Source: Escherichia phage Andreotti. Taken from it: a stretch of DNA of 64,000 bases. The notes under the pieces were generated by a model. That model was given only the letters and a program-made list of their open reading frames with translations, had not been told where the DNA came from and searched no databases. Location of the stretch: sequence record MN850610.1, one strand, 5' to 3'. The position numbers and the translations under genes were made by a program. Position 1 is the stretch's first letter; each line of letters starts with the position of its first letter. Positions 2,560-64,000 of this stretch are shown here, piece by piece.

Positions 2560-3286
2560 CCCCTTTTAACCAGCACTTCAGGTTATTAGCATCATAATTC
2601 AGTTTCGGGTATGAGGTTACATGGAACTGCTCACCATCATAGTAGACAATATCTGCAATCCATAGTCCGTTCTCTTTACAGAAGTCTTTATCTGCTTTAG
2701 AGGTAATTGGATTAACTTCTACAAAACCATCTACACCCAAATCCTTTAAGCTACCTACAATACCTTTGCAGATAACGCATGTCTCAGATACTACCACAAA
2801 AAGTTCTTGGCTTTCAAGCTCTACAATGTATTCACCAAGCTGTACTTTAGGGAGATTTGATTGCTTCATAATCTTCCCATCGTCTGCACGGACAATCGCA
2901 TACCACTCTTTACCATCAACCACTGACATTCGAATAATACACTCTTGACCAGTACGCTTCTCAATATCTGCAAGACGTTTTAAAGCTTCTTCATAGTCAT
3001 CTGTGTACTTCAGGTCATTATTATGGCAAACAGCTTTCATAGCACCGTTATGGTCATGTTGTGACAGGTAAATCAAACCGTCAAGAACATATTGCAAATC
3101 TGCCTGAGCATCCAGTGTCTCAATGGGGTCTTTCTCTTCAATTGCTTTTACAAGCTCTTTTGCTTCTTCAAGCATACACAGAGATTGAGATTTTAAAGAT
3201 TCCCAATACTCATTACTGTAAGGTTGCTTTTGAGTGTTTCCACAACGAAGGTTCCAGTTTTTTACTGATTCTCTTGAGTTAAACAT
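2531..3286 (-). CDS. hypothetical protein (251 aa); N-terminal helical region weakly reminiscent of MazG-type NTP pyrophosphohydrolases
   Basis: ORF track; segment EEAKELVKAIEEKDPIETLDAQADLQYVLDGL resembles the EExxEL...DxL pattern; unverified. Confidence 0.5.
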   Translation of the reverse strand: MFNSRESVKNWNLRCGNTQKQPYSNEYWESLKSQSLCMLEEAKELVKAIEEKDPIETLDAQADLQYVLDGLIYLSQHDHNGAMKAVCHNNDLKYTDDYEEALKRLADIEKRTGQECIIRMSVVDGKEWYAIVRADDGKIMKQSNLPKVQLGEYIVELESQELFVVVSETCVICKGIVGSLKDLGVDGFVEVNPITSKADKDFCKENGLWIADIVYYDGEQFHVTSYPKLNYDANNLKCWLKGVGYNGFTEH

Positions 3287-3531: not shown

Positions 3532-4032
3532 TCAAGCACAATTTGCTTTCATTACCTTATGGATTCTTTTTTCAGCATCTTCATAAGTTTCTTTAGTAAT
3601 AAACTTAATTGCTGCAATATTGGCATTGTAGAAGAGTCTGAGCTTCGAGTCAATCCTTTTTGTCATTACATCGAACTTATGCTGAAGGTTTGCTTCACCA
3701 TAAACTAGGCCACCTTTTGTGTAGTAGGTTTGGATAATGTAAAAATCAAAAGATTCCTTTCCAAAGCTCTCAATATCTTTTTTAATATACTCAGAAGAAG
3801 TTTCATAAGTCATCCAATCACTCTCCTTAGTGACTACCTTCTTCCGAGTCTTCCCAGCAACTTTTCTTTTGGTCACACTATTAAGCTGCTTCTTACCCAA
3901 ATAGTACTGTCCAGTCTTTTTGCAGTACACTAGGTAGACAAAACCAAAGTGCTTTGCTGGGTCAACTTCACCACATAGTGAAACCCAATGTCCATATTCA
4001 GGGCAATTGCCAAAACCTTTAACTTTAATCAT
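3532..4032 (-). CDS. GIY-YIG-like endonuclease (putative homing endonuclease)
   Basis: N-terminal GFVYLVYCKKTGQYYLGKK resembles the GIY...YIG motif; lies next to an HNH gene. Confidence 0.5.
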   Translation of the reverse strand: MIKVKGFGNCPEYGHWVSLCGEVDPAKHFGFVYLVYCKKTGQYYLGKKQLNSVTKRKVAGKTRKKVVTKESDWMTYETSSEYIKKDIESFGKESFDFYIIQTYYTKGGLVYGEANLQHKFDVMTKRIDSKLRLFYNANIAAIKFITKETYEDAEKRIHKVMKANCA

Positions 4033-6545: not shown

Positions 6546-6694
6546 TTACTGGAAGTTGTGCTTATCTTTAGAAGCTGCTTTACGTGCAGTTTTTCCAGTT
6601 CTTACACGTTTTTCTTCATAGTATTTTGCTGGTTTTCCAGCAGTGGCTTTTAAGGAATCCCCAAAAACTTTTTCAAATGCTTTAGAGTGTTTCA
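6546..6694 (-). CDS. small basic protein (49 aa), not in ORF track (below length cut-off)
   Basis: manual translation MKHSKAFEKVFGDSLKATAGKPAKYYEEKRVRTGKTARKAASKDKHNFQ; GGAGA about 6 nt upstream of ATG. Confidence 0.3.
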
Positions 6695-6985
6695 TGATAT
6701 TCTCCGATATACTTGATATTCAAACACATTCTCTTTAATTATAAACAGCCAACTAATATTATGCTGAGGCAGCGCAATGATGACTGTAATCATGCTTTGG
6801 TGGAAATCTTCTTTTATCTCAACTTCCCCGTCGCATTTCATAAGGAGCATTCTATAGAACCTATCAATCTTTGTCAAACACTCTTCCTGAAATTTATTTA
6901 AACTTTTTTCTTCAAAGAAGGGTGTGAACCCCTCTCTTTTATAACTATCACTCAGTTTCGAATGGGCAGTCATCTGCATCCTCAC
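6692..6985 (-). CDS. hypothetical protein (97 aa)
   Basis: ORF track; 3' end of primase-helicase gene overlaps its 5' end. Confidence 0.45.
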   Translation of the reverse strand: MRMQMTAHSKLSDSYKREGFTPFFEEKSLNKFQEECLTKIDRFYRMLLMKCDGEVEIKEDFHQSMITVIIALPQHNISWLFIIKENVFEYQVYRRIS

Positions 6986-8933
6986 TTAATACAGGTGGAA
7001 TCGTTGAGCTTTGACGCTGCTCTTCAGTATAGACTTCACCAGTCTCACGGTCAAACACTTCATCCTCATAATGTGGCAAAGAGTCATCATAATGGTCTTC
7101 AGCTTCACCAATACCAAACTGTTGGCGAATATTTTCTGCTGCGCCATCAATGTCAACTCCACAACCAGATGCTTTGATAAGACGCCCTGTATCTGGATTG
7201 TACCAAGTATGACCAGCAATACCAGTTGACTTACCATGACGACGACATTTAGTTAGCTTGATTTTTGTCAAGTTTTTCTTAACAGGGTCTGGGTCAACCT
7301 TGTTACGCATTAACAGAATGTTGTTCATAGAAATCTGGAAATACGCACCAGAACCTTTAATATCCTCTTCAGAGATATCTCCACCTTCAGAGTTAGCCTT
7401 CTGACCACCTGCACTCTTACGAACGTGACAGACGTTCACCTGTGCATACTGGTAGCGTTTGCAACGACGCAATAGCTCAGATAAAACTTCCTCTTCATCC
7501 GTATCTGAACGTGACAGAGCCAACGTAATAGGGTCAAGAATAATAATCTTACAGTCTAAGCTGTTAACAAGATAGTCAACAAACTCCAGCAAGTTATCTT
7601 GGTCAATTGCCCCTTGATGGTCAACGATGTGGATACGACGACCTTTAGACAGTTCTGCGTGTGCCTTCTTCAATTCATCCCAATCACGTTCGTCATAAGG
7701 AATCTCAGAAATCTGCTTGCTAAGGTGGATTGCACAGAGCATCTCCATCAACTCTTCATAGGTATCTTCTACAGGAATTACACCAATATTGTAATCGGTA
7801 TCTTTCCAAGCAGTATAAATCATTTCACGGGTGTAAGCTGATTTACCTACTGAGGATGGTGCTGCCAGAGTTGTAATCTCACCTAAACCGTAACCACCAT
7901 AAGTCAGTCTGTTCAAATCCCCGAAAGATTCTGGGAAAGGAATCAATGGAATCTGACCACGATTCTTCATTGCCTCAAAACCATCTGCGAAGTTCTTGAT
8001 ACCAGCAGGACAGTAACGAGGTGCATTGTAGATACGCTGCTTAAATCCTTCCAGAACTGTATCTTTCTCTTTATAGAACTTTGTCCACCATTCGTTAAGG
8101 TCTTTTACACCCTCTGGATACTGGAATAAACGAACCTTCTCAATCGGAAGGATACCAGCAGCCTCTTTGGTAGCTTTAGCACCTGCTTCATCATTATCAA
8201 AGCACAAGTAAATCTCATCAAATGATGTGATGTACTGATAGTTGTCTTTGATAGACTTAATGTTTGCACCTGATGGGACAGATACGTGACAGTAATTCTT
8301 ACGACGAGACTTGTCCTTAATCGCAAGAGAAGTCATATAGATTGCTGTCGCACATTCCATCTCACCTTCCCAGATGAATAGGCGGTTACCACCTTCTGGA
8401 GCAATCCATGAACCGAACATTGCAAGTTCACCTTTAATATCTCCAACACCACCAGAAAAGTCTTTTAGCTTACCACGTAGGTGCTCTTTTGGATGGTCTT
8501 CTGGATAACGATGACGTACACGGTAACCGACGTGCTCTAGCTTACCATCTTCATTACGTTTGTAAGTTGGATAGAAATGCGCATCAATTTCACCGTCACT
8601 GTCAATGTCAACCTTGATACCCAAACGCTCAAGAACTTTTGCAGGAATCTTCCTATCCTTTAAGTCCATTGCTTCAAGGTTTTCTTTGACATCTTCTAAA
8701 TCCATTCCACGGAAAGTACGGTTTTTATTGTCTGAACCAGTAGAATAAGTGCTCACGATTTGTCCTTTATCAAAATCCCACTCTGGGAAACCTTTGTTAC
8801 AGCTAAAGCAAGTCATCGAATAAGAATCATCGTCATGATGATAGATTGAACCAGCATCTGATGAACCACAACGTGGACATGCACAATGACCAATAAACTG
8901 ACCAGCCTCTTTCAATTTACGACCTTTAGACAT
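6948..8933 (-). CDS. bifunctional DNA primase/helicase (T7 gp4-like)
   Basis: N-terminal Cys4 zinc ribbon (CPRCGSSD...CFSC), central TOPRIM-like region, C-terminal Walker A GLGEITTLAAPSSVGKS and Walker B IIILDPITLA; start moved to ATG at 8933 with GAAGAGG RBS. Confidence 0.85.
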   Translation of the reverse strand: MSKGRKLKEAGQFIGHCACPRCGSSDAGSIYHHDDDSYSMTCFSCNKGFPEWDFDKGQIVSTYSTGSDNKNRTFRGMDLEDVKENLEAMDLKDRKIPAKVLERLGIKVDIDSDGEIDAHFYPTYKRNEDGKLEHVGYRVRHRYPEDHPKEHLRGKLKDFSGGVGDIKGELAMFGSWIAPEGGNRLFIWEGEMECATAIYMTSLAIKDKSRRKNYCHVSVPSGANIKSIKDNYQYITSFDEIYLCFDNDEAGAKATKEAAGILPIEKVRLFQYPEGVKDLNEWWTKFYKEKDTVLEGFKQRIYNAPRYCPAGIKNFADGFEAMKNRGQIPLIPFPESFGDLNRLTYGGYGLGEITTLAAPSSVGKSAYTREMIYTAWKDTDYNIGVIPVEDTYEELMEMLCAIHLSKQISEIPYDERDWDELKKAHAELSKGRRIHIVDHQGAIDQDNLLEFVDYLVNSLDCKIIILDPITLALSRSDTDEEEVLSELLRRCKRYQYAQVNVCHVRKSAGGQKANSEGGDISEEDIKGSGAYFQISMNNILLMRNKVDPDPVKKNLTKIKLTKCRRHGKSTGIAGHTWYNPDTGRLIKASGCGVDIDGAAENIRQQFGIGEAEDHYDDSLPHYEDEVFDRETGEVYTEEQRQSSTIPPVLSEDADDCPFETE

Positions 8934-11421: not shown

Positions 11422-14121
11422 ATGGAAAACGTAGATTTTAAAAACTTACATTTAGTTGGTGATACAGAAACTGATGGTTTACTCCTTGAGTTCACTAAAG
11501 TGCACGTAATGGCTTTCGCAGACTATAAATCTGACGATGAAGAGCCGCCTGTATGGGTCTTTACAGATGAGCCTATCCTCGGTCACAAGTATACCAAGTA
11601 TATTAAGGGTGGCTTACGTGAAGGTATTGAGTTTGCGTTAAAGGCAAAACGTCTTTGCATCCATAACGGTCTCGGTTATGACTGGTGGGTTTTCAATCAC
11701 ATTGCACCTGATTTATGGAACTTTGATAATCCAAAGTGTAAACCGTGGAGTAATTTCTTTCAGGATTCTCTTATCCAGTCTCGTGTTCAGTGGATGGATA
11801 GACCAACTCCAAAGGGTTATAAAGGTGCTCATGGTTTGGCTGCATGGGGTGCTCGTGTCGGTGTTCGTAAACCAGAGATTGAACATTGGGGTGTGTGGAA
11901 TGCAGAAATCTTCACTCGTGTTGTAGAAGATATCCGTATTAACGCCAAAACTAAACGGGCACTTGATAACGAGTATCTCAAGCTTAAGAAGTGTGGTATA
12001 GACACTTATGAAACTTACATGCGAGCTAAAGAAACATCTTTCTGGATGAGTCAACAGGCTATCAATGGTTGGAAAGCTGATAAAGAGCTTATGGAGTTCC
12101 ATGTAAAGGAACTTGACAAGTTGACTAATGAACTTGCTTCAGAAGTTGAACCGCATCTACCTCCAACTATTAAGACCAAAGGTAAAGTCACTGGAGAAGA
12201 GTTTGCAAAAGCTTGGAATGAGTATGTTGAAGCATTTGGTCATGCAGATGGACTGAAAAGAATTACCAAGTACCCTAAGACGAAGTATCGTCAGCAGGTG
12301 CGTAATGGTGAGATGCAGACTTATGAAATCAAACCATTTGGTAAGCCAACTACAAAGATTTTTAACATTGAAAAAAGGAATTGCTATACACCAACCAACT
12401 CTGTAACTGGTGAAGAGTACAAGGAAGGTTTTGTAGCAATGAAGGATGCTCGTGCAATTTGCAATGAGTTGAATGCAAAGATTGGTAAGAAATGCAAAGA
12501 CTGGAAGCCAGTAAAAACAGTCAAAACTGTGAAGTACTATAACAGCCACGTTGTTAACCACTTTGAACTTGAGTCAAGTCGCTACACAGGTTTGATTGAT
12601 GCACCATATACACCAATTGAGTTTGAAGTTTCTCGTATGACTCAGGTAGCAGTTGTTAAAGACTACTTGAAATCGGTTGGTTGGATTCCAGATGACTGGA
12701 ACTACAAGAAAGACTCAGACGGTCGCCCTGTCAAAGTTTGTCGTTTCAAAGACAATAAAAAGATGATTACAAAACATCCTAAGTGGCAGGAAATGGTTGA
12801 GCGGTGTGGTTTGAGCTATGTTGAGCACGAAGGTGTACAGTACATTGAGCATAATTGGTCTGTGAAGAAATACACAGATTTGCTTGAACCTTGCTTAATC
12901 CGTACTTCACCAAAACTTACTGAATCATCTTATGATACGATTGAAGGTGAGCTTGGGCAGAAGATTGCTAAATACTACACTTTGATGCACCGACGCAGAA
13001 CTATTGAGAACTCAAAGGATGACGAGAAAGGTTGGCTGAACCAGATTCGTCCAGATGGTCGCCTTAGTGCTGGTGCAATGGTATTTGGTACTTCAACTGG
13101 ACGTATGACCCAGTATGGTATTGTAAACGTACCGTCTGGTGCTGCTGTCTATGGAGAACCAATGAGGGCAGTGTGGATTTGTGAAGAGGGAACCAACGTA
13201 GTCTCTGTTGATATGAACTCAGCCCAGCTAGTTCTACTTTGTAACTTTATGGGTGATAAAGAGTTCACCAAAGCGGTAACGCAAGGTAAAGAAGAGATTG
13301 AGTTTATTCGTCAAGAAGATGGACGCTATTACTGCAAACATTTTGATGAGTACCTAAACCCAGAGATTGATAAGTACCTTCGCTATGACTCTGAGAATGA
13401 CCTGTACGTTGTCTATTCAGGGACTGATGCACATACACTGAACAGTATTTACTTTAGCTTGAATGATGAGCAGGATATCTTGACTTGTCGAGCTACTCAG
13501 GATGAGAATCTTCTTCATGAGATTAGCAAAGGTCGTAAGAAAGCTAAGAATGGTATCTATGCACTACTGTTTGGTGCAGGTGATGAAAAGTTTGCTAAAA
13601 CTATTAAGGCAGCCACTACTCAGGAAGGTGCATTAACTAAACAGACTTACTTTGTGCGTTTGCCAAAGATTAAGAAACTATTAGATGACTTGGAAGATGA
13701 CTACAAAGCAACTAAAAAGGCACTTGAAGAGGTGTTTGGTAAGACTGCTGCAATCTCTAAAGGGGGCTTTGTAAAGGTTGCTGGAGCTTGGTTGTGGTGT
13801 AAATCTCCACATAAGTTATTGAATTATTTGCTCATGGGTTCGGAGGCTCAGATTCAGAATGAGGCAATTAACCTTGCTTGTAGAAGAGCATGTGAAGAAG
13901 GGTTGACAAAATTAAATGGACGAAAACCAGCAATTGGTGCTAGGCTTTTGCTGGCATACCACGATGAAAACAGTTGGGAGTGCCCAGAAAGTATGACTCA
14001 AGAAGTTAAAGCCATAACTGACTGGATGTATGGTCAGGCATCTAAGAATTTAGGTTTGAAGAGTGAGACGCTTGTAACTGGCACAGGAAAGGTTGGTAAG
14101 AGCTGGTATGAGGTACATTGA
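11422..14121 (+). CDS. DNA polymerase, family A (T7-like), with 3'-5' exonuclease domain
   Basis: Exo I motif DTETDGL; pol motif A-like VDMNSAQL, motif B KKAKNGIYALLFGAG, motif C HDE; start placed at ATG 11422 with GAGGGAG RBS rather than track start 11392. Confidence 0.9.
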   Translation: MENVDFKNLHLVGDTETDGLLLEFTKVHVMAFADYKSDDEEPPVWVFTDEPILGHKYTKYIKGGLREGIEFALKAKRLCIHNGLGYDWWVFNHIAPDLWNFDNPKCKPWSNFFQDSLIQSRVQWMDRPTPKGYKGAHGLAAWGARVGVRKPEIEHWGVWNAEIFTRVVEDIRINAKTKRALDNEYLKLKKCGIDTYETYMRAKETSFWMSQQAINGWKADKELMEFHVKELDKLTNELASEVEPHLPPTIKTKGKVTGEEFAKAWNEYVEAFGHADGLKRITKYPKTKYRQQVRNGEMQTYEIKPFGKPTTKIFNIEKRNCYTPTNSVTGEEYKEGFVAMKDARAICNELNAKIGKKCKDWKPVKTVKTVKYYNSHVVNHFELESSRYTGLIDAPYTPIEFEVSRMTQVAVVKDYLKSVGWIPDDWNYKKDSDGRPVKVCRFKDNKKMITKHPKWQEMVERCGLSYVEHEGVQYIEHNWSVKKYTDLLEPCLIRTSPKLTESSYDTIEGELGQKIAKYYTLMHRRRTIENSKDDEKGWLNQIRPDGRLSAGAMVFGTSTGRMTQYGIVNVPSGAAVYGEPMRAVWICEEGTNVVSVDMNSAQLVLLCNFMGDKEFTKAVTQGKEEIEFIRQEDGRYYCKHFDEYLNPEIDKYLRYDSENDLYVVYSGTDAHTLNSIYFSLNDEQDILTCRATQDENLLHEISKGRKKAKNGIYALLFGAGDEKFAKTIKAATTQEGALTKQTYFVRLPKIKKLLDDLEDDYKATKKALEEVFGKTAAISKGGFVKVAGAWLWCKSPHKLLNYLLMGSEAQIQNEAINLACRRACEEGLTKLNGRKPAIGARLLLAYHDENSWECPESMTQEVKAITDWMYGQASKNLGLKSETLVTGTGKVGKSWYEVH

Positions 14122-49801: not shown

Positions 49802-50049
49802 GCATTAATCTTTAAAGACTCTCTTAGAAAGCCCTTAAAGATGCCCACCTTATTAATCATACCGTGGGCGAGTACGCCAAATTCTTTGATGAGGGATTGG
49901 AAGACCTCACTGGTGTTTAGCCTATCAAGCTACTGCCAGAAAAACATTGTCGTTTGCATTTATTTTAAATTTGCAAAATAGACGCTACGCAACGAAAACT
50001 AAGGGTACTATAAAGTAGTCACATCTCAATGTCAACAACTTTATTGAAT

Positions 50050-50124
50050 TTGGTTGTAGGTGAGGGTATCGAACCCTCTTCTAACGGTTATCAGCCGTTT
50101 GCATTACCATTTATGCTAACCCAC
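50050..50124 (-). tRNA. tRNA-Ile (anticodon GAU)
   Basis: T-arm GAGGG-TTCGATA-CCCTC; perfect 5-bp anticodon stem, loop CUGAUAA. Confidence 0.75.
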
Positions 50125-50207: not shown

Positions 50208-50283
50208 TTGGTAGAAGTGGAGGGATTCGAACCCATCGCCTGTCAGATTAAAAGTCTGCCGCATCACCATTCTGCTACACTTC
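50208..50283 (-). tRNA. tRNA-Lys (anticodon UUU)
   Basis: T-loop TTCGAAT; anticodon loop CUUUUAA. Confidence 0.6.
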
Positions 50284-50293
50284 CATTAAATTA

Positions 50294-50440
50294 TCTTTGT
50301 AGATAAGCTACCCAGACTTGCTTAAGGTCTGTAGCGATGTGCCTTTATGGGTTTAAAATCTAGAATTTACCCTTTCACCCTTTGTGGTCGCATACTCACA
50401 GGTAAGCTTAATAACTTATCTACAAAGATAATTACCAGAC
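50294..50440 (-). repeat. structured non-coding element bounded by a perfect 17-bp inverted repeat
   Basis: TTATCTTTGTAGATAAG (50294-50310) and its exact reverse complement (50424-50440) enclose 113 nt containing nested inverted repeat GCTACCCAGAC / GTCTGTAGC. Confidence 0.6.
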
Positions 50441-50713
50441 CGTTATTTATCATCTTAAGTGCTACCATTACACCAACTCGACATCTGCCGAGTGAAGGAA
50501 TCGAACCTTCGCCTTTTCTTTACCGAGAAATAGATTGTTTAAGTTTTGCTGTAAACGGTCTTCTGTAAATTTGTTGAGCCAGACCAAGTTTTAAATTTTT
50601 CAAAATTGAATTGGCTTGAAATTTTAAGTAACTTGCTGAATTTGGTCTTCTGCTCCTTTAAAGGATACTCGTAAGAACCCTTTAAGGGAGGGGCTAAATA
50701 GCCCTCTCAAAAT

Positions 50714-50789
50714 TGGCGAGGTATGCGAGAATCGAACTCGCGGCTCAGGAGAGACAGTCCCGTATTTTGCCCATCTAAACTAATACCCC
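50714..50789 (-). tRNA. tRNA-Asp (anticodon GUC), tentative
   Basis: acceptor GGGGTAT/ATACCTC, T-arm GCGAG-TTCGATT-CTCGC; anticodon loop CUGUCUC has U at position 37. Confidence 0.55.
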
Positions 50790-50795
50790 AAAAAT

Positions 50796-51224
50796 CTATG
50801 TACCATTTCTTAGGTACTTCTCTTTACGCCTTGCTGGATTGTAGTGCTTGCGTCCTTCTGCGTTTTTAGCAAGTCTGCAAGGTTCACACCTACAACCTCT
50901 TCTATAACCAGACACTGTGCCATGTTTAATTGGTGTGTATTTCCTATCACCAATCTGGGCTGGCCTAGTTGCTTTTGAATTACATTGTATGTGGCTGTAA
51001 GATATATTGTCAAGTGAGAAGAAAAGCTCTTTTGCATTCTCTTCATGTCTCCAAGGAACTTTATGTTCTATAGAGAAATCAACTCTGGACATTTCTTTTC
51101 CACAATGGTGACACTTATTCTGTCCAGTTTTACAAACCAAATCAAAGAGTAAATCTTTAACAAGCCTGTTCTGGGCTGTTCCTAAGCTCATACCAAGTTG
51201 TGACTTGTAAACTTCATTCTTCAT
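50796..51224 (-). CDS. HNH endonuclease (putative homing endonuclease) inside tRNA array
   Basis: CHHCGKEMSRVDFSIEHKVPWRHEEN...H (HNH-type His/Asn spacing); C-terminal GYRRGCRCEPCR. Confidence 0.7.
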   Translation of the reverse strand: MKNEVYKSQLGMSLGTAQNRLVKDLLFDLVCKTGQNKCHHCGKEMSRVDFSIEHKVPWRHEENAKELFFSLDNISYSHIQCNSKATRPAQIGDRKYTPIKHGTVSGYRRGCRCEPCRLAKNAEGRKHYNPARRKEKYLRNGT

Positions 51225-51418: not shown

Positions 51419-51495
51419 TTAATACATTGCCAGACCGTGTTTTTTCTTTTATCCGCAAAAAGTATTTTGTTGCTGTAAACGGTCTTCTGTAAATT

Positions 51496-51571: not shown

Positions 51572-51663
51572 AATTCTTAATGACCAGACCAAATCTCTTC
51601 TTTGTCCGATTTACCTTCAGATGAATAAGATTAAGTTTGCTGTAATTGGTCTTCTGTCAAAAC

Positions 51664-51825: not shown

Positions 51826-51990
51826 ATAAACTTTTCAAACTCTATGTAACCACTTTAACATTATTTTTTAGTGGTTGTCAAGAACTTTTTTAAAATATTT
51901 TTCAGTATCTTAGAAAAGCTCTCGTTTCGTCTCTATGTAGAACATATTAAAGGGTATCAAACACATTGTCAATACCCTTTTTAAAACTTT

Positions 51991-53406
51991 TTACCAGATA
52001 TAACGGTCAATCATTACTGCTTTGAGCATTACACTGATTGGGTCAAACTTCTCACCACCAAGCAGAGCTTTTAAAGTGGCTGGAGAGAACCCTGATACCA
52101 TTGCTACACCGTTATCCTTAACAGATACTTCGCAAGTACCATTACGGTTTGCTAAGTACCAGAATACCAGTTGTGGCATCTCATATCCAGCTTTTTTGTA
52201 CTTACTCTGAATTGCTTCAAAGTTTGTACGTCCGTTAGCTCCATCAACCTGATTGAACTCCATATCGGAGAAGATGATAAGCTTACTTGGCATATCTTTC
52301 TGAGTCAAGTTGTTTCTTTTACCTGTTTCAAGAATGCGGTCAAAAGCTGCTTGTAAGTTAGTTGAGCCATATTCAACGTGTCGCATCACCTGACGATGAC
52401 GGTTTCGTAAATCACCACTCAGTTCGATGAAGTGAGGGTTTGTTGAATAAACCATCAACTCATTCTTAAAGCAACCTGTATTGCGTTCTGCTACATACAA
52501 GGCAAGTGATACACCAATATCAAGAGCAGTAATGGAGCCAAAATTCACCCAAGACATTGAGCTTGAAACATCAGACATACATAGAATGTTTTCACCCTCT
52601 GCCATCCAGTTTGGTAGTGCTTTCCACTGCTCATTAGCAACATCTGCATTACCATACTTAACAGATTTAATCACATCGTATGGGTAAACAGCACCAGCGT
52701 TAATCTTAGTCTCACCTTTTGATAAGGACTCGATGTAAGCTTTGTAACGTTCCCCATCTTTACGGTTAAAGAGTTTTTGGTAACGTGCAGCAGCAAGTGA
52801 AGGAATCTTACTGTAGTCAATCTTACCAAACTCATTAGCAGAGATTTTTTGCTCAACTGTATCAGAGAGTGCAGACAACAGTGTGCGGTACTCTTTCTCA
52901 CTCAAGTTGGCAAATTTGCAGAAACGTTTTACAAACTGCTTGTGACGTGGTTTGACTCGTGGTAACCACTTAGCTGCCAAACCTGCTGTTGCAGGGTCTA
53001 GTAATGCTGCTTCTAAATGTTTGAAGGCATCTGTCTCGAAACGAGTACCTACGAAGATTTTGAAGTCATCAAAACGACCAAGTTCTGCAATCTTATCCAT
53101 AATGCGAAGAACCTGTGCAGGCTCTAAAACTTTGTCTTCAATCGCTTGAAGCAAAACAGTTCTGAAGGCTTTACGCTCACCCATACCTTCTCGTACATCT
53201 CGCATATGCAGTAAAATACGAACTGAAACATCAACATCCTCACGCAAAGCTTTGTAGAACAGGTCTGGTAAGATTTCTACATTGCTACGACTTGAACCAG
53301 CAGCTTTGTAAAAGTCTACAAGAGCAGACATTGATGAAGTATGGTTTACAGCACCATTTTCAGTTCGACCTGCATGAAGGTGCGCATGTTTAAATAACTC
53401 GCTCAT
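51991..53406 (-). CDS. von Willebrand factor A (vWA) domain protein with N-terminal helical domain (471 aa)
   Basis: MIDAS-type DxSxS motif in LCMSDVSSSM followed by alternating hydrophobic strands; about 250-aa helical N-terminal region; directly upstream of tRNA array. Confidence 0.6.
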   Translation of the reverse strand: MSELFKHAHLHAGRTENGAVNHTSSMSALVDFYKAAGSSRSNVEILPDLFYKALREDVDVSVRILLHMRDVREGMGERKAFRTVLLQAIEDKVLEPAQVLRIMDKIAELGRFDDFKIFVGTRFETDAFKHLEAALLDPATAGLAAKWLPRVKPRHKQFVKRFCKFANLSEKEYRTLLSALSDTVEQKISANEFGKIDYSKIPSLAAARYQKLFNRKDGERYKAYIESLSKGETKINAGAVYPYDVIKSVKYGNADVANEQWKALPNWMAEGENILCMSDVSSSMSWVNFGSITALDIGVSLALYVAERNTGCFKNELMVYSTNPHFIELSGDLRNRHRQVMRHVEYGSTNLQAAFDRILETGKRNNLTQKDMPSKLIIFSDMEFNQVDGANGRTNFEAIQSKYKKAGYEMPQLVFWYLANRNGTCEVSVKDNGVAMVSGFSPATLKALLGGEKFDPISVMLKAVMIDRYIW

Positions 53407-53487: not shown

Positions 53488-53859
53488 TTATTTTTTGAGG
53501 GTTGCAACAGCAGAGAACGTTGGTTTGTTATCTGTCTGAGACTGACCACCGTTATCAGGAGTCTTCTTAGTGTCTGCTGCAAGTGCTTTCATCTCACCTG
53601 CTGAGTGAGTAAAGATGGTTTTACCGACCTCAATCATGCTCTTGATGGTTACGTCATCTGTGTTTAACCCGAACTCTGCAAGCTTAGCAGCGTCCCTTGT
53701 AACAATCGCCTCAAACAACTTTGCAGCAAACTCAGCAGAATTATCAATGGTTAGTTGAGCTTTTACGAGTGAACTTTTGTTACGTGAGCCTTTCGGTCTT
53801 CCAGATGGGTTTCCAGACTGGCCTTTTTTAAACTGGCCTTTGTTTGTTCTGTTTTTCAT
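53488..53859 (-). CDS. hypothetical basic protein with N-terminal GNPSGRPKG motif (123 aa)
   Basis: N-terminus KKGQSGNPSGRPKGSRNK; Ala/Lys-rich. Confidence 0.5.
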   Translation of the reverse strand: MKNRTNKGQFKKGQSGNPSGRPKGSRNKSSLVKAQLTIDNSAEFAAKLFEAIVTRDAAKLAEFGLNTDDVTIKSMIEVGKTIFTHSAGEMKALAADTKKTPDNGGQSQTDNKPTFSAVATLKK

Positions 53860-63299: not shown

Positions 63300-63830
63300 T
63301 TACAGACTTTTGATTGTTTCGTCAATATCTTTTTCAATATCTTTTAAAGTTTTTTCTAAGTTCTTGATATTGAAAGATAAACCTTCTCCCAGTGTCTTAG
63401 AGTAACCGCTAGGTCGATGGTCGTAAAGCTCGATTTCTTCCACTTCGAAGAGGCTAACAGTCCAACCGCCTACGCCATAGGCTGAAGCAACAGAGTTTTC
63501 AGGGGCTTTATAGAACTTGTTAAGATTCTGGATAGAACGCTCATAAGCCATTTTATAGCCGTTTAAAAGGTTTTTAACGTGGTTACGAACGTTTTTACAC
63601 TCATCTAAGTAAATCTCTAAGAATAACGGCAATAATTCCGCTACAGCTTGCATAAAGTGAGAGACTACAACGGTTGCAACATTACGACGATGTACATAAT
63701 AAGCCCCGTTTTCTGACTTAGTGATGGTTGCAAAGTGTACCCCATTGCAGCGAAATTCGTAGGTATCTTTAACAGGCTTAGACATTACAGCATTTGAACG
63801 AATGTAGTTGATAGCTTGAAATTTGTTCAT
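63300..63830 (-). CDS. hypothetical protein (176 aa)
   Basis: track ORF 63300-63857 trimmed to ATG 63830 (MNKFQAINY...) with AGGAGA RBS; upstream codons of track ORF read through the palindrome centre. Confidence 0.55.
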   Translation of the reverse strand: MNKFQAINYIRSNAVMSKPVKDTYEFRCNGVHFATITKSENGAYYVHRRNVATVVVSHFMQAVAELLPLFLEIYLDECKNVRNHVKNLLNGYKMAYERSIQNLNKFYKAPENSVASAYGVGGWTVSLFEVEEIELYDHRPSGYSKTLGEGLSFNIKNLEKTLKDIEKDIDETIKSL

Positions 63831-64000
63831 TTTAGAATCTCCTAGTTTAAGGACCACTAAATAAAGTCCTTAAACTAGGAGATTCTAAAATGAACAAATT
63901 TCAAGCTATCAACTACATTCGTTCAAATGCTGTAATGTCTAAGCCTGTTAAAGATACCTACGAATTTCGCTGCAATGGGGTACACTTTGCAACCATCACT
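63712..64000. repeat. long perfect inverted repeat (palindrome) centred near 63862, truncated by window end
   Basis: plus 63879-64000 is the exact reverse complement of about 63721-63840; inner arms CCTAGTTTAAGGAC / GTCCTTAAACTAGG flank an 11-nt loop. Confidence 0.85.
63888..64000 (+). CDS. mirror copy of the 5' end of gene 63300-63830 (partial; continues past window)
   Basis: plus strand encodes MNKFQAINYIRSNAVMSKPVKDTYEFRCNGVHFATIT, identical to N-terminus of the minus-strand gene. Confidence 0.35.

Follow-up and report, generated by a model that had tools for sequence, protein, structure and literature searches.

Organization of the tRNA array

The DNA analysed here, a stretch of 64,000 nucleotides from Escherichia phage Andreotti (MN850610.1; hereafter the window), comes from a FelixO1-like phage, and megablast matched it to 301 phage records, mostly Felixounavirus. 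It contains 25 tRNA genes, all of which lie on the minus strand. The 430-nt spacer between tRNA-Asp (50714-50789) and tRNA-Lys(UUU) (50209-50284) is near-invariant among relatives outside one element, an inverted repeat that a first-pass annotation of the sequence had placed between these two genes; the mapped tRNA genes bear out this position. Four related modules, Ma, Mb, M1 and M2, lie in the same array, and a gene encoding a Ro60-like protein is located 1.5 kb upstream of the element on the same strand (Table 1). Candidate start sites for a transcript of the tRNAs and modules are provided by two sigma-70-like promoter matches located between this gene and the first tRNA, and similar TTGACA boxes occupy the same place in the Logan contig L009 and in L008. 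A consensus scan found no promoter or terminator at the element, which lacks the G+C-rich hairpin and U-run of an intrinsic terminator. The array contains mobile HNH endonuclease genes in some relatives and not in others.

The element had been described as 147 nt long, with perfect 17-nt arms around 113 enclosed nucleotides. Both quoted 17-mers are present and are exact reverse complements, but their positions required correction: TTATCTTTGTAGATAAG lies at 50291-50307 rather than 50294-50310, and CTTATCTACAAAGATAA at 50415-50431 rather than 50424-50440. We measured a perfect inverted repeat of 19 bp (arms 50289-50307 and 50415-50433), or of 22 nt if one mismatch is allowed (50289-50310 and 50412-50433). 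The helix formed in minus-strand RNA, P1, comprises 24 bp including G·U pairs, with four extra U·G pairs at its inner end. The element thus spans 50289-50433(-), or 145 nt, of which 101-107 nt are enclosed. Shuffling the window 20 times produced no perfect inverted repeat of 17 nt or longer within 200 nt, and the arm sequence was found in the window only at these two sites when three mismatches were allowed (0.06 expected). The fold of a 156-nt RNA had an energy of -47.9 kcal/mol (z = -4.5 relative to dinucleotide shuffles). The stem is rich in A and U, and only 4 nt (UAAU) separate the 3' strand of P1 from the 5' end of tRNA-Lys(UUU).

Table 1. Positions of the RNA features, the candidate promoters and the Ro60-like gene in the window
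Feature	Position	Strand	Basis
P1, 3' strand	50289..50312	-	Inverted repeat, fold, 22-variant alignment
M3, 3' internal hairpin CAGAC-CUUAAGCAA-GUCUG	50313..50331	-	Abuts P1 3' strand
H3, central hairpin with UUCUAGAUU	50349..50372	-	Folds of types A and B
H2, 5' internal hairpin, loop AGUAUGCGA conserved in type A	50379..50402	-	RNAalifold, 12 type-A sequences
P1, 5' strand (upstream arm, RNA sense)	50410..50433	-	Inverted repeat, minimum-free-energy fold
M2, YrlA-like circularly permuted tRNA mimic	50434..50565	-	Sequence, fold, covariation
M1, small ACAGCAA-type module AAGACCAAAUUCAGCAA...UUGGUCUGG	50579..50652	-	Repeats; sub-threshold RF01414 match 50580-50647
Mb, small ACAGCAA-type module, tRNA-Met/tRNA-Asn spacer	51430..51488	-	RF01414 match 51431-51484
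Ma, small ACAGCAA-type module, tRNA-Glu/tRNA-Met spacer	51584..51652	-	Pattern scan
Two sigma-70-like promoter matches, candidate start sites for the tRNA/module transcript	51852..51972	-	Consensus match only
Gene for 471-aa Ro60-like protein, upstream of the tRNA/module array	51991..53406	-	Pfam DUF2828 and DUF7788; AlphaFold2

The inverted-repeat element is conserved as RNA

RNA folds revealed three hairpins inside P1 (H2, H3 and M3), in agreement with the nested repeat noted in the first-pass annotation. The interior falls into two sequence types, A and B, that are equal in length (148-153 nt) and share the layout P1, H2, H3, M3. Besides M3, whose loop reads YUUAGCAA, the UUCUAGAUU of H3 is the sole interior sequence common to both types, and both features are retained in L009 as well. 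We found no 7-nt anticodon-like loop, T-loop, T-arm or D-arm in the element by folding or with Rfam, and neither Rfam nor ARAGORN detected a tRNA in 50285-50436. A permissive Rfam scan of the element and the Lys-Asp spacer, a search that the first-pass annotation had proposed, assigned no family and returned only a T-arm fragment and chance-level matches. The view that the element has no convincing open reading frame held up, as none is conserved on either strand.

We compared 22 distinct variants of the element, taken from GenBank (FelixO1, fKMPT1, bumzen, SUSP1, Silverhawkium, Moogle and REP7), IMG/VR contigs and L009. IMG/VR was searched with a loose DNA pattern for M3, for which the matches listed were mostly random, and a tRNA-Lys downstream was then required. 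The 24 pairs of P1 were 98.3% paired, and 8 of them had changed on both sides. M3 was 100% paired, with double changes at two of its five pairs (G-C to A-U and A-U to U-A). Taken together, P1 and M3 were 98.6% paired with double changes at 10 of 29 pairs, in a set of variants that are mostly close kin and, as regards covariation, represent about four to five independent lineages. When the alignments were slid by 1-3 columns as a control, 30-44% of positions were paired and 0-1 pairs were double-changed, and none of 500 shuffles scored as high as the real alignment for pairing or covariation.

Compensatory changes preserve the stem in Felixounavirus, Suspvirus, Mooglevirus and a more distant contig. 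Across the two types and L009, the stem sequences have diverged yet still pair (UGUAGAUAAG/CUUAUCUACA versus UGCAGUGAC/GUUACUGCA); L009, in which the Ro60-like protein is 63% identical, has kept the element with a re-coded stem. Compensatory changes were also present in the interior. In H2, where RNAalifold showed two pairs with double changes, the stem GUG/CAC of the window is replaced by GGGG/CCCC in L009, and further such changes were found in M3 and in a type-B helix (ATTTCCT/AGGAAAT to GTCTCTT/AAGAGAT). G·U or U·G wobbles account for about 70 of the 628 stem cells (~11%). In the opposite strand or in DNA the same positions would be A·C mismatches; these wobble pairs form only in tRNA-sense RNA. 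Because the stem is kept paired and its G·U pairs form only in RNA of this sense, we conclude that the element is an RNA structure and not a DNA cruciform, a transposon or an open reading frame. Folding and covariation across related phages, which had been suggested as a check, thus showed a stem conserved by compensatory changes in the 22 variants. Of the earlier idea of a processed structured RNA, the structured RNA is borne out by the compensatory changes, the strand-specific wobble and the tRNA-sense unit, and the processing is something that we infer.

The element occupies an identical site in all 204 matching records, about 190 of which exceed 95% identity. Partial matches made up 15 of the 204, and the two that we inspected had a type-B interior with the stem kept. 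In about 200 genomes the element is annotated as a hypothetical protein or left blank. Yersinia phage P778, which has a Ro60-like protein with 53% identity, carries an unrelated sequence with the same plan directly before tRNA-Lys, consisting of a stem of ~24 bp, a multi-hairpin interior and an M3-like hairpin (AAGUCC-CUUAGCAAG-ACUU) against the 3' strand.

Neighbouring modules share a signature

M2 ends 1-3 nt before P1 and has the parts of a tRNA in permuted order. In the fold of the whole spacer it is closed by an 8-bp helix, AGACCGUU/AACGGUCU (50554-50561 and 50437-50444), followed by UUACAGCAA, a perfect T-arm (GAAGG-UUCGAUU-CCUUC; 50494-50510), a loop-closed acceptor stem of 7 bp (ACUCGGC-AGAU-GUCGAGU; 50476-50493) and a D-arm (GUGU-AAUGGUA-GCAC; 50459-50473). 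The first-pass annotation had noted no T-loop, which is correct inside the element but overlooked this T-arm, 61 nt upstream in the RNA sense. M2 was 98.4% paired in 16 variants, with double changes at 3 of 7 acceptor pairs. The acceptor occurs in three sequences, ACUCGGC/GUCGAGU, ACACG/CGUGU and ACCCUUC-GCCA-...-GAAGGGU; in Moogle, the acceptor strand is followed by GCCA, as at the 3' end of a tRNA. A reading of the permuted part as a tmRNA or two-piece tmRNA was rejected, as ARAGORN found no tmRNA and there was no G3·U70 pair and no evident tag frame; the topology of YrlA fits better. The REP7 record annotates M2 as a tRNA-Thr of 131 nt.

M2 starts with CAGAAGACCGUUUACAGCAA and finishes with ACGGUCUGG, and the same ends frame M1, Mb and Ma. 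All four modules follow the order AAG-stem, UUACAGCAA, variable insert and stem-UGG. In the RNA sense, GGUCUGG occurs at four sites in the 64-kb window, all of which are in the tRNA array and correspond to the four modules. We defined the family by a terminal stem of at least 6 bp, (U)UACAGCAA at 0-4 nt from its 5' strand, and location on the same strand near a DUF2828 gene; Ma, Mb, M1 and M2 have all of these features. In the inverted-repeat element, the terminal stem and the position are present, whereas the 5' strand is followed by UUAUUAAGCUUA only. A shortened motif, UUAAGCAA or CUUUAGCAA, is found instead in its internal hairpin M3, which reads ACAGACC-UUA-AGCAA-GUCUGG and, from its sequence, looks like a shortened or collapsed copy of the signature of the ACAGCAA modules. 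Because the full UUACAGCAA is absent beside the terminal stem, the element is a putative member of the family, by resemblance.

The array lies downstream of a gene for a Ro60-like protein

AlphaFold2 modelling of the 471-aa protein from an alignment of 47 sequences gave a pLDDT of 89.7, whereas single-sequence modelling was unusable (pLDDT 42). The domain layout is a TROVE-like ring and a vWA domain. When the model was compared with PDB folds, the top 12 matches were all Ro60 proteins, from Xenopus, human, D. radiodurans (Rsr) and Thermus phage phiLo (E ~3e-8, TM up to 0.68). PDB sequence searches with the protein and with its profile found no match, and Pfam gave no TROVE match. The predicted structure thus indicates that the protein folds as Ro60. 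By tblastn, the protein family is present in 709 phage records from many host phyla, and its members are often annotated as RNA-binding or Ro-like.

The protein is orthologous to gp130 of Bas63, a Ro60-like protein that counters Ppl defence and is encoded upstream of tRNA genes (PhageMaP preprint, PMC11482910). The authors of that work speculated that "some tRNA genes are possibly Y RNAs", and none was identified there. The Ro60 of Thermus phage phiLo binds phage-encoded Y-like RNAs and host PNPase (PMC12135203).

Modules accompany DUF2828 genes in diverse phages

We surveyed co-occurrence at about a dozen loci with a hand-written pattern scan and shuffles. In addition to the window, about ten lineages were examined (L009, P778, Vibrio phi-pp2, Klebsiella FBKp34, Mycobacterium Lolly9, Campylobacter CJLB-7, Listeria LMSP-25, Bacillus Thrax4, Staphylococcus S-CoN_Ph16 and Sinorhizobium phiM12). 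Every one of them had modules on the strand of the DUF2828 gene, either beside it or in the adjoining tRNA array, with 2-5 modules per lineage against 0.2-1.4 expected from shuffles. Several of these modules carry tRNA-like inserts; those of FBKp34 and Lolly9 match Rfam YrlA (RF02553) with E values of 2e-5 and 7.5e-5 and scores of 39.6 and 37.7 bits, the gathering score being 69. In phiM12, there are module versions with 14- and 21-bp stems. We found no ACAGCAA modules in the tRNA clusters of T5 or T4, and neither phage was among the DUF2828 matches listed (60 of 709). Judging from these sequences, the motif tracks the DUF2828 gene across unrelated phages and not any particular tRNA. In Listeria phage LMSP-25, an RtcB-type ligase is encoded 1.3 kb away, a neighbourhood reminiscent of the bacterial rsr-yrlBA-rtcBA operon.

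Comparison with known RNA families

[quoted passage not shown] 2014, PMC4201824). The phage locus resembles the YrlA/Ro60 systems (RF02553; Yrl1 and Yrl2 of phiLo) in having a gene with a Ro60 fold within ~1.5 kb on the same strand (the criterion being ~4 kb), several RNAs per locus, and a terminal stem formed from the 5' and 3' ends. M2 has the order T-arm, loop-closed acceptor, D-arm, and its 7-bp acceptor stem resembles that of the M. smegmatis YrlA cleaved by RNase P; the other modules are simpler stems with a large internal region. Thus, M2 contains the tRNA-like domain expected of a YrlA RNA, in which a stem made from the flanks closes a V region, T-arm, loop-closed acceptor stem and D-arm in that order, whereas the inverted-repeat element does not.

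There are also clear differences from YrlA. The phage protein is of the DUF2828 type, and its kinship with Ro60 is seen by fold and not by Pfam or PDB sequence search. The phage RNAs are dispersed among tRNA genes. The inverted-repeat element lacks tRNA-like arms, has a much longer, unbulged stem, and carries the shortened motif in an internal hairpin only. No canonical Ro60-binding motif (GNCGAAN0-1G, or GGUCCGA with a bulged helix) is present, the phage 5' motif being UUACAGCAA; GGCGAAG is present only within the T-stem of M2, with GGAGAGG in FelixO1 and GAGAGAAGG in Moogle. RF02553 had no match in 50270-50730 at E values up to 10. Because the GNCGAA motif, a sufficient Rfam score and a TROVE sequence match are all missing, we do not consider the locus a member of YrlA and file it as a variant of the Ro60/Y-RNA type. 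The inverted-repeat element is without a described counterpart.

Two other groups of phage and bacterial RNAs share some of these features. The stable RNAs of T4 (rnaC and rnaD, species 1 and 2) and T5 (RNA I, III, IV, 1, 2, 2H, 3 and X) are, according to record annotations, 70-170 nt long, located between tRNA genes and co-transcribed with them, and they have terminal stems and in some cases tRNA-like character. They differ in having no sequence homology to the phage RNAs studied here, save for an 11-mer, and in lying in clusters without ACAGCAA modules. Homology between the element and T5 RNA2H was not accepted, as the only sequence in common is this 11-mer, UUCUAGAUUAG, which is shared with the type-B element, lies in a different structural context and may be due to chance. 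The stalks cleaved by RNase III in rRNA operons and in T7 early transcripts likewise place a long duplex around a structured RNA in a polycistronic stable-RNA transcript; the stem of the element, by contrast, encloses ~100 nt that are not rRNA, and it has no internal loop of the T7 type.

Proposed role of the element

We favour, with somewhat better than even confidence, the explanation that the element belongs to a phage ribonucleoprotein system of the Ro60/Y-RNA type that has not been described before, in which tRNA processing would release a Y-RNA-like module for binding by the Ro60-like protein. In this model, P1 would be the terminal stem of a non-coding RNA domain of ~145 nt, in which H2, H3 and M3 meet at a junction and M3 could stack directly on P1. 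The domain would be transcribed from the minus strand within a polycistronic tRNA transcript beginning shortly after the Ro60-like gene, as the last of the five related modules Ma, Mb, M1, M2 and the element. RNase P, cutting at the tRNA-Lys 5' end, and tRNA-type processing upstream would between them free the element, either alone or joined to M2. The long stem might guard its ends from exonucleases and offer a protein-docking helix as in Y RNAs, and the stem-plus-AGCAA motif is a putative recognition site for the Ro60-like protein.

The phage would then build particles of the Ro60/Y-RNA type during infection, with the element, alone or fused to M2, as a putative ligand or scaffold; cleavage of P1 by RNase III is a plausible addition or alternative. 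By analogy to phiLo and to gp130 of Bas63, such particles may act on host RNA decay or defence, through the recruitment of PNPase or the blocking of a defence nuclease. The modules provide concrete RNA candidates, with coordinates, for phage Ro60-like proteins, and their signature recurs beside the gene in about ten lineages, which opens the question of what these proteins bind and do to direct experiments. They also suggest that tRNA arrays can serve as processing cassettes for RNAs other than tRNAs.

Other explanations would do without the Ro60-like protein. The element could be a pure processing or stability signal, an RNase III site that separates the upstream RNAs from tRNA-Lys, tRNA-Met and tRNA-Ile or sets their half-life, with a functionless interior. 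Its duplex, 19 bp perfect and 24 bp with wobbles, amounts to about two helical turns, which is the duplex size that E. coli RNase III needs. The duplex also lies exactly between two processed units, with M2 ending 1-3 nt before it and tRNA-Lys starting 4 nt beyond it, and the stem is the best-conserved structural feature of the element. However, the interior is constrained as well, keeping its length, its three hairpins and its compensatory changes in H2, the type-B helix and M3, and M3 and UUCUAGAUU persist across types and in L009; moreover, RNase P would suffice for the cut before tRNA-Lys. We consider it unlikely that the element is such a signal and nothing else, although cleavage by RNase III is compatible with our main explanation and both can hold. 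An RNA decoy or sponge, in which the element mimics a tRNA arm or anticodon loop to titrate a defence nuclease or a host RNA-binding protein and shares the operon for co-expression only, would account for its place directly beside tRNA-Lys(UUU). This tRNA is a frequent target of anticodon nucleases. The cloverleaf-like four-way junction, with a 3' hairpin abutting the closing stem, is consistent with mimicry, and a presumed role of phage tRNA arrays against tRNA-directed defences is discussed in PMC11482910. We nevertheless regard a decoy of this kind as quite improbable, since no hairpin of the element has a 7-nt anticodon-like or T-loop sequence and the shared motif follows the DUF2828 gene instead of a particular tRNA.

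Explanations at the level of DNA or protein fit the variation poorly. The first-pass annotation had offered a DNA cruciform or recombination site as an alternative to a structured RNA, and terminal inverted repeats of 19-22 bp, the mobility of HNH endonuclease genes in this array and the two interior types, which suggest cassette replacement, would suit a cruciform, a recombination or homing-endonuclease site or a miniature inverted-repeat transposable element. Yet the element is single-copy in the window and in each genome, is flanked by no direct repeat or target-site duplication, and keeps a constant position in four genera and L009. The arm changes are compensatory rather than shared, both interior types are equal in length and fold, and the G·U and U·G cells described above pair only in minus-strand RNA. 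We therefore discard the cruciform or recombination site on the grounds of the single copy, the lack of a target-site duplication and the strand-asymmetric wobble, and the miniature transposable element because it would be single-copy, without a direct repeat and at the same site in 204 of 204 matching records; any DNA-level role appears highly improbable. We give equally little credence to a small protein gene (a 73-aa plus-strand open reading frame at 50347-50568, ORF94 of FelixO1) or a functionless, decayed tRNA pseudogene. Annotation speaks for these readings, in that many GenBank records (FelixO1 and others) place a hypothetical protein here and M2 is called a tRNA-Thr in REP7. Interruptions or shifts, however, break the reading frame in fKMPT1, bumzen, SUSP1, Silverhawkium, Moogle and L009, including type-B relatives, and substitutions follow base-pairing, not codons. 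As for a pseudogene, ARAGORN and Rfam saw no tRNA in the element, and a neutral remnant would not hold 98.6% pairing over such divergence.

Similarity of the small modules to Class I RNAs

The best Rfam match of the small modules was RF01414, the Class I RNA of Dictyostelium. Eight modules from four unrelated phages matched over the full length and with exact module boundaries, with scores of 14-25 bits that lie below the gathering score of 41.5; the inverted-repeat element itself was unmatched. Class I RNAs carry conserved AAG and CUGU ends and are closed by a 6-bp terminal stem, whose 5' strand adjoins an 11-nt motif; their interior varies (Kjellin et al. 2021, PMC7919456). The similarity is confined to the small modules. 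Both they and the Class I RNAs measure 45-80 nt and finish with CUG(U); the terminal stem of 6-8 bp starts with AAG or G, (C)UUACAGCAA comes directly after its 5' strand, and the interior is variable. The motif consensus of RF01414, CCUUACAGCAA, equals the phage signature, and the small modules have a 9-nt motif and the architecture in common with the Class I RNAs. Class I RNAs differ in being eukaryotic, in having their own DUSE promoters, in reportedly binding the RRM protein Rnp1A and in having been described as dictyostelid-only; no connection with a DUF2828 protein has been reported for them.

The resemblance raises an unexpected and testable link to Dictyostelium. A tentative, rather doubtful possibility is that the element and the four modules descend from a single ancient RNA family, built from a terminal stem, (C)UUACAGCAA and a variable or tRNA-like insert. 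It would be the cognate Y-RNA-like partner of DUF2828-type Ro60 proteins, would occur in phages of Proteobacteria, Campylobacterota, Firmicutes and Actinobacteria and would include the Class I RNAs. If this were true, Class I RNAs would not be restricted to dictyostelids, and their function could be approached through a DUF2828/Ro60-like ribonucleoprotein. The long-stem element would then be a specialised member of the family, such as a scaffold linking M2 with a second protein-binding hairpin.

Small RNA modules and M2 homologues

The small modules beside DUF2828 genes, built from a short terminal stem and a UUACAGCAA motif, repeatedly gave Dictyostelium Class I RNA (RF01414) as their best Rfam match, with alignments that were full-length yet sub-threshold. 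We found such matches in the window and in three comparison sequences, one of them Listeria phage LMSP-25. The phage modules share with Class I RNAs the terminal stem, the motif and a CUG(U) end; Class I RNAs are reported from dictyostelids only (PMC7919456).

In the Moogle-type form of M2, the YrlA-like permuted tRNA mimic (Citrobacter phage Moogle, 1502-1624; also L066, a further comparison sequence), a G-CCA lies between the 3' strand of the acceptor and the loop. A cut at this G-CCA would produce a tRNA-like CCA end, a predicted end that resembles RNase P-processed YrlA of M. smegmatis. The M2 homologue of Escherichia phage REP7 (653-783) is annotated in GenBank as a 131-nt tRNA-Thr(GGT), and many other records carry a hypothetical protein across the 24-bp-stem element. 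Both labels are probably wrong.

Stable RNAs that have no assigned function are annotated in the tRNA clusters of T5 (at 11809-11980) and T4 (at 2909-3172). One of them, T5 RNA2H, and the type-B form of the element have the 11-mer UUCUAGAUUAG in common, but its predicted structural context differs between the two.

Neighbours of the DUF2828 and Ro60-like genes

The window, Yersinia phage P778 and L009, a contig encoding a related Ro60-like protein, all have a DUF5681 gene directly before the Ro60-like gene; it is a possible conserved partner. In LMSP-25, the DUF2828 gene with its three modules is followed, 1.3 kb downstream, by an RtcB-type 'tRNA-splicing ligase' gene (6808-8019), an arrangement that echoes the bacterial rsr-yrlBA-rtcBA operon.

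Other features of the array and window

A 142-aa ORF separates tRNA-Asp from tRNA-Tyr. Those relatives that carry it have it annotated as an HNH homing endonuclease, though a Pfam search with the window's ORF returned no match. Its absence from the same site in FelixO1, fKMPT1 and bumzen identifies it as a mobile insertion in the array.

Two more conserved hairpins lie directly after tRNA-Asp, between it and module M1; L009 retains both with altered sequence. In the 247-nt spacer following tRNA-Ile, the Rfam families tmRNA and permuted tmRNA give sub-threshold matches (49804-50108, minus strand; E about 0.002), and a strong sigma-70-like promoter match occurs in the same region (50035-50007). 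The spacer may hold a further non-tRNA RNA.

Coordinates of modules, hairpins and genes
Feature	Sequence	Coordinates	Strand	Detail
RF01414-matching modules	Window	51431-51484, 50580-50647		Rfam
RF01414-matching modules	L131	9532-9594, 9621-9671		Rfam
RF01414-matching modules	L137	5485-5546, 5562-5629		Rfam
RF01414-matching modules	LMSP-25 (L134)	3623-3678, 3712-3767		Rfam
Hairpin 1	Window	within 50653-50710	-	GAGGGCU-AUUU-AGCCCCUC
Hairpin 2	Window	within 50653-50710	-	CUCCCUUAAAGGG...CCUUUAAAGGAG
142-aa ORF	Window	50796-51224	-	
DUF5681 gene	Window	53488-53859	-	
DUF5681 gene	P778 (L008)	6558-6917		
DUF5681 gene	L009	6575-6946		

A perfect 135-nt inverted repeat with an 11-nt spacer (63720-63854 / 63866-64000) runs into the window end; it may mark the terminus of the genome, or be a foldback or an artefact of assembly.
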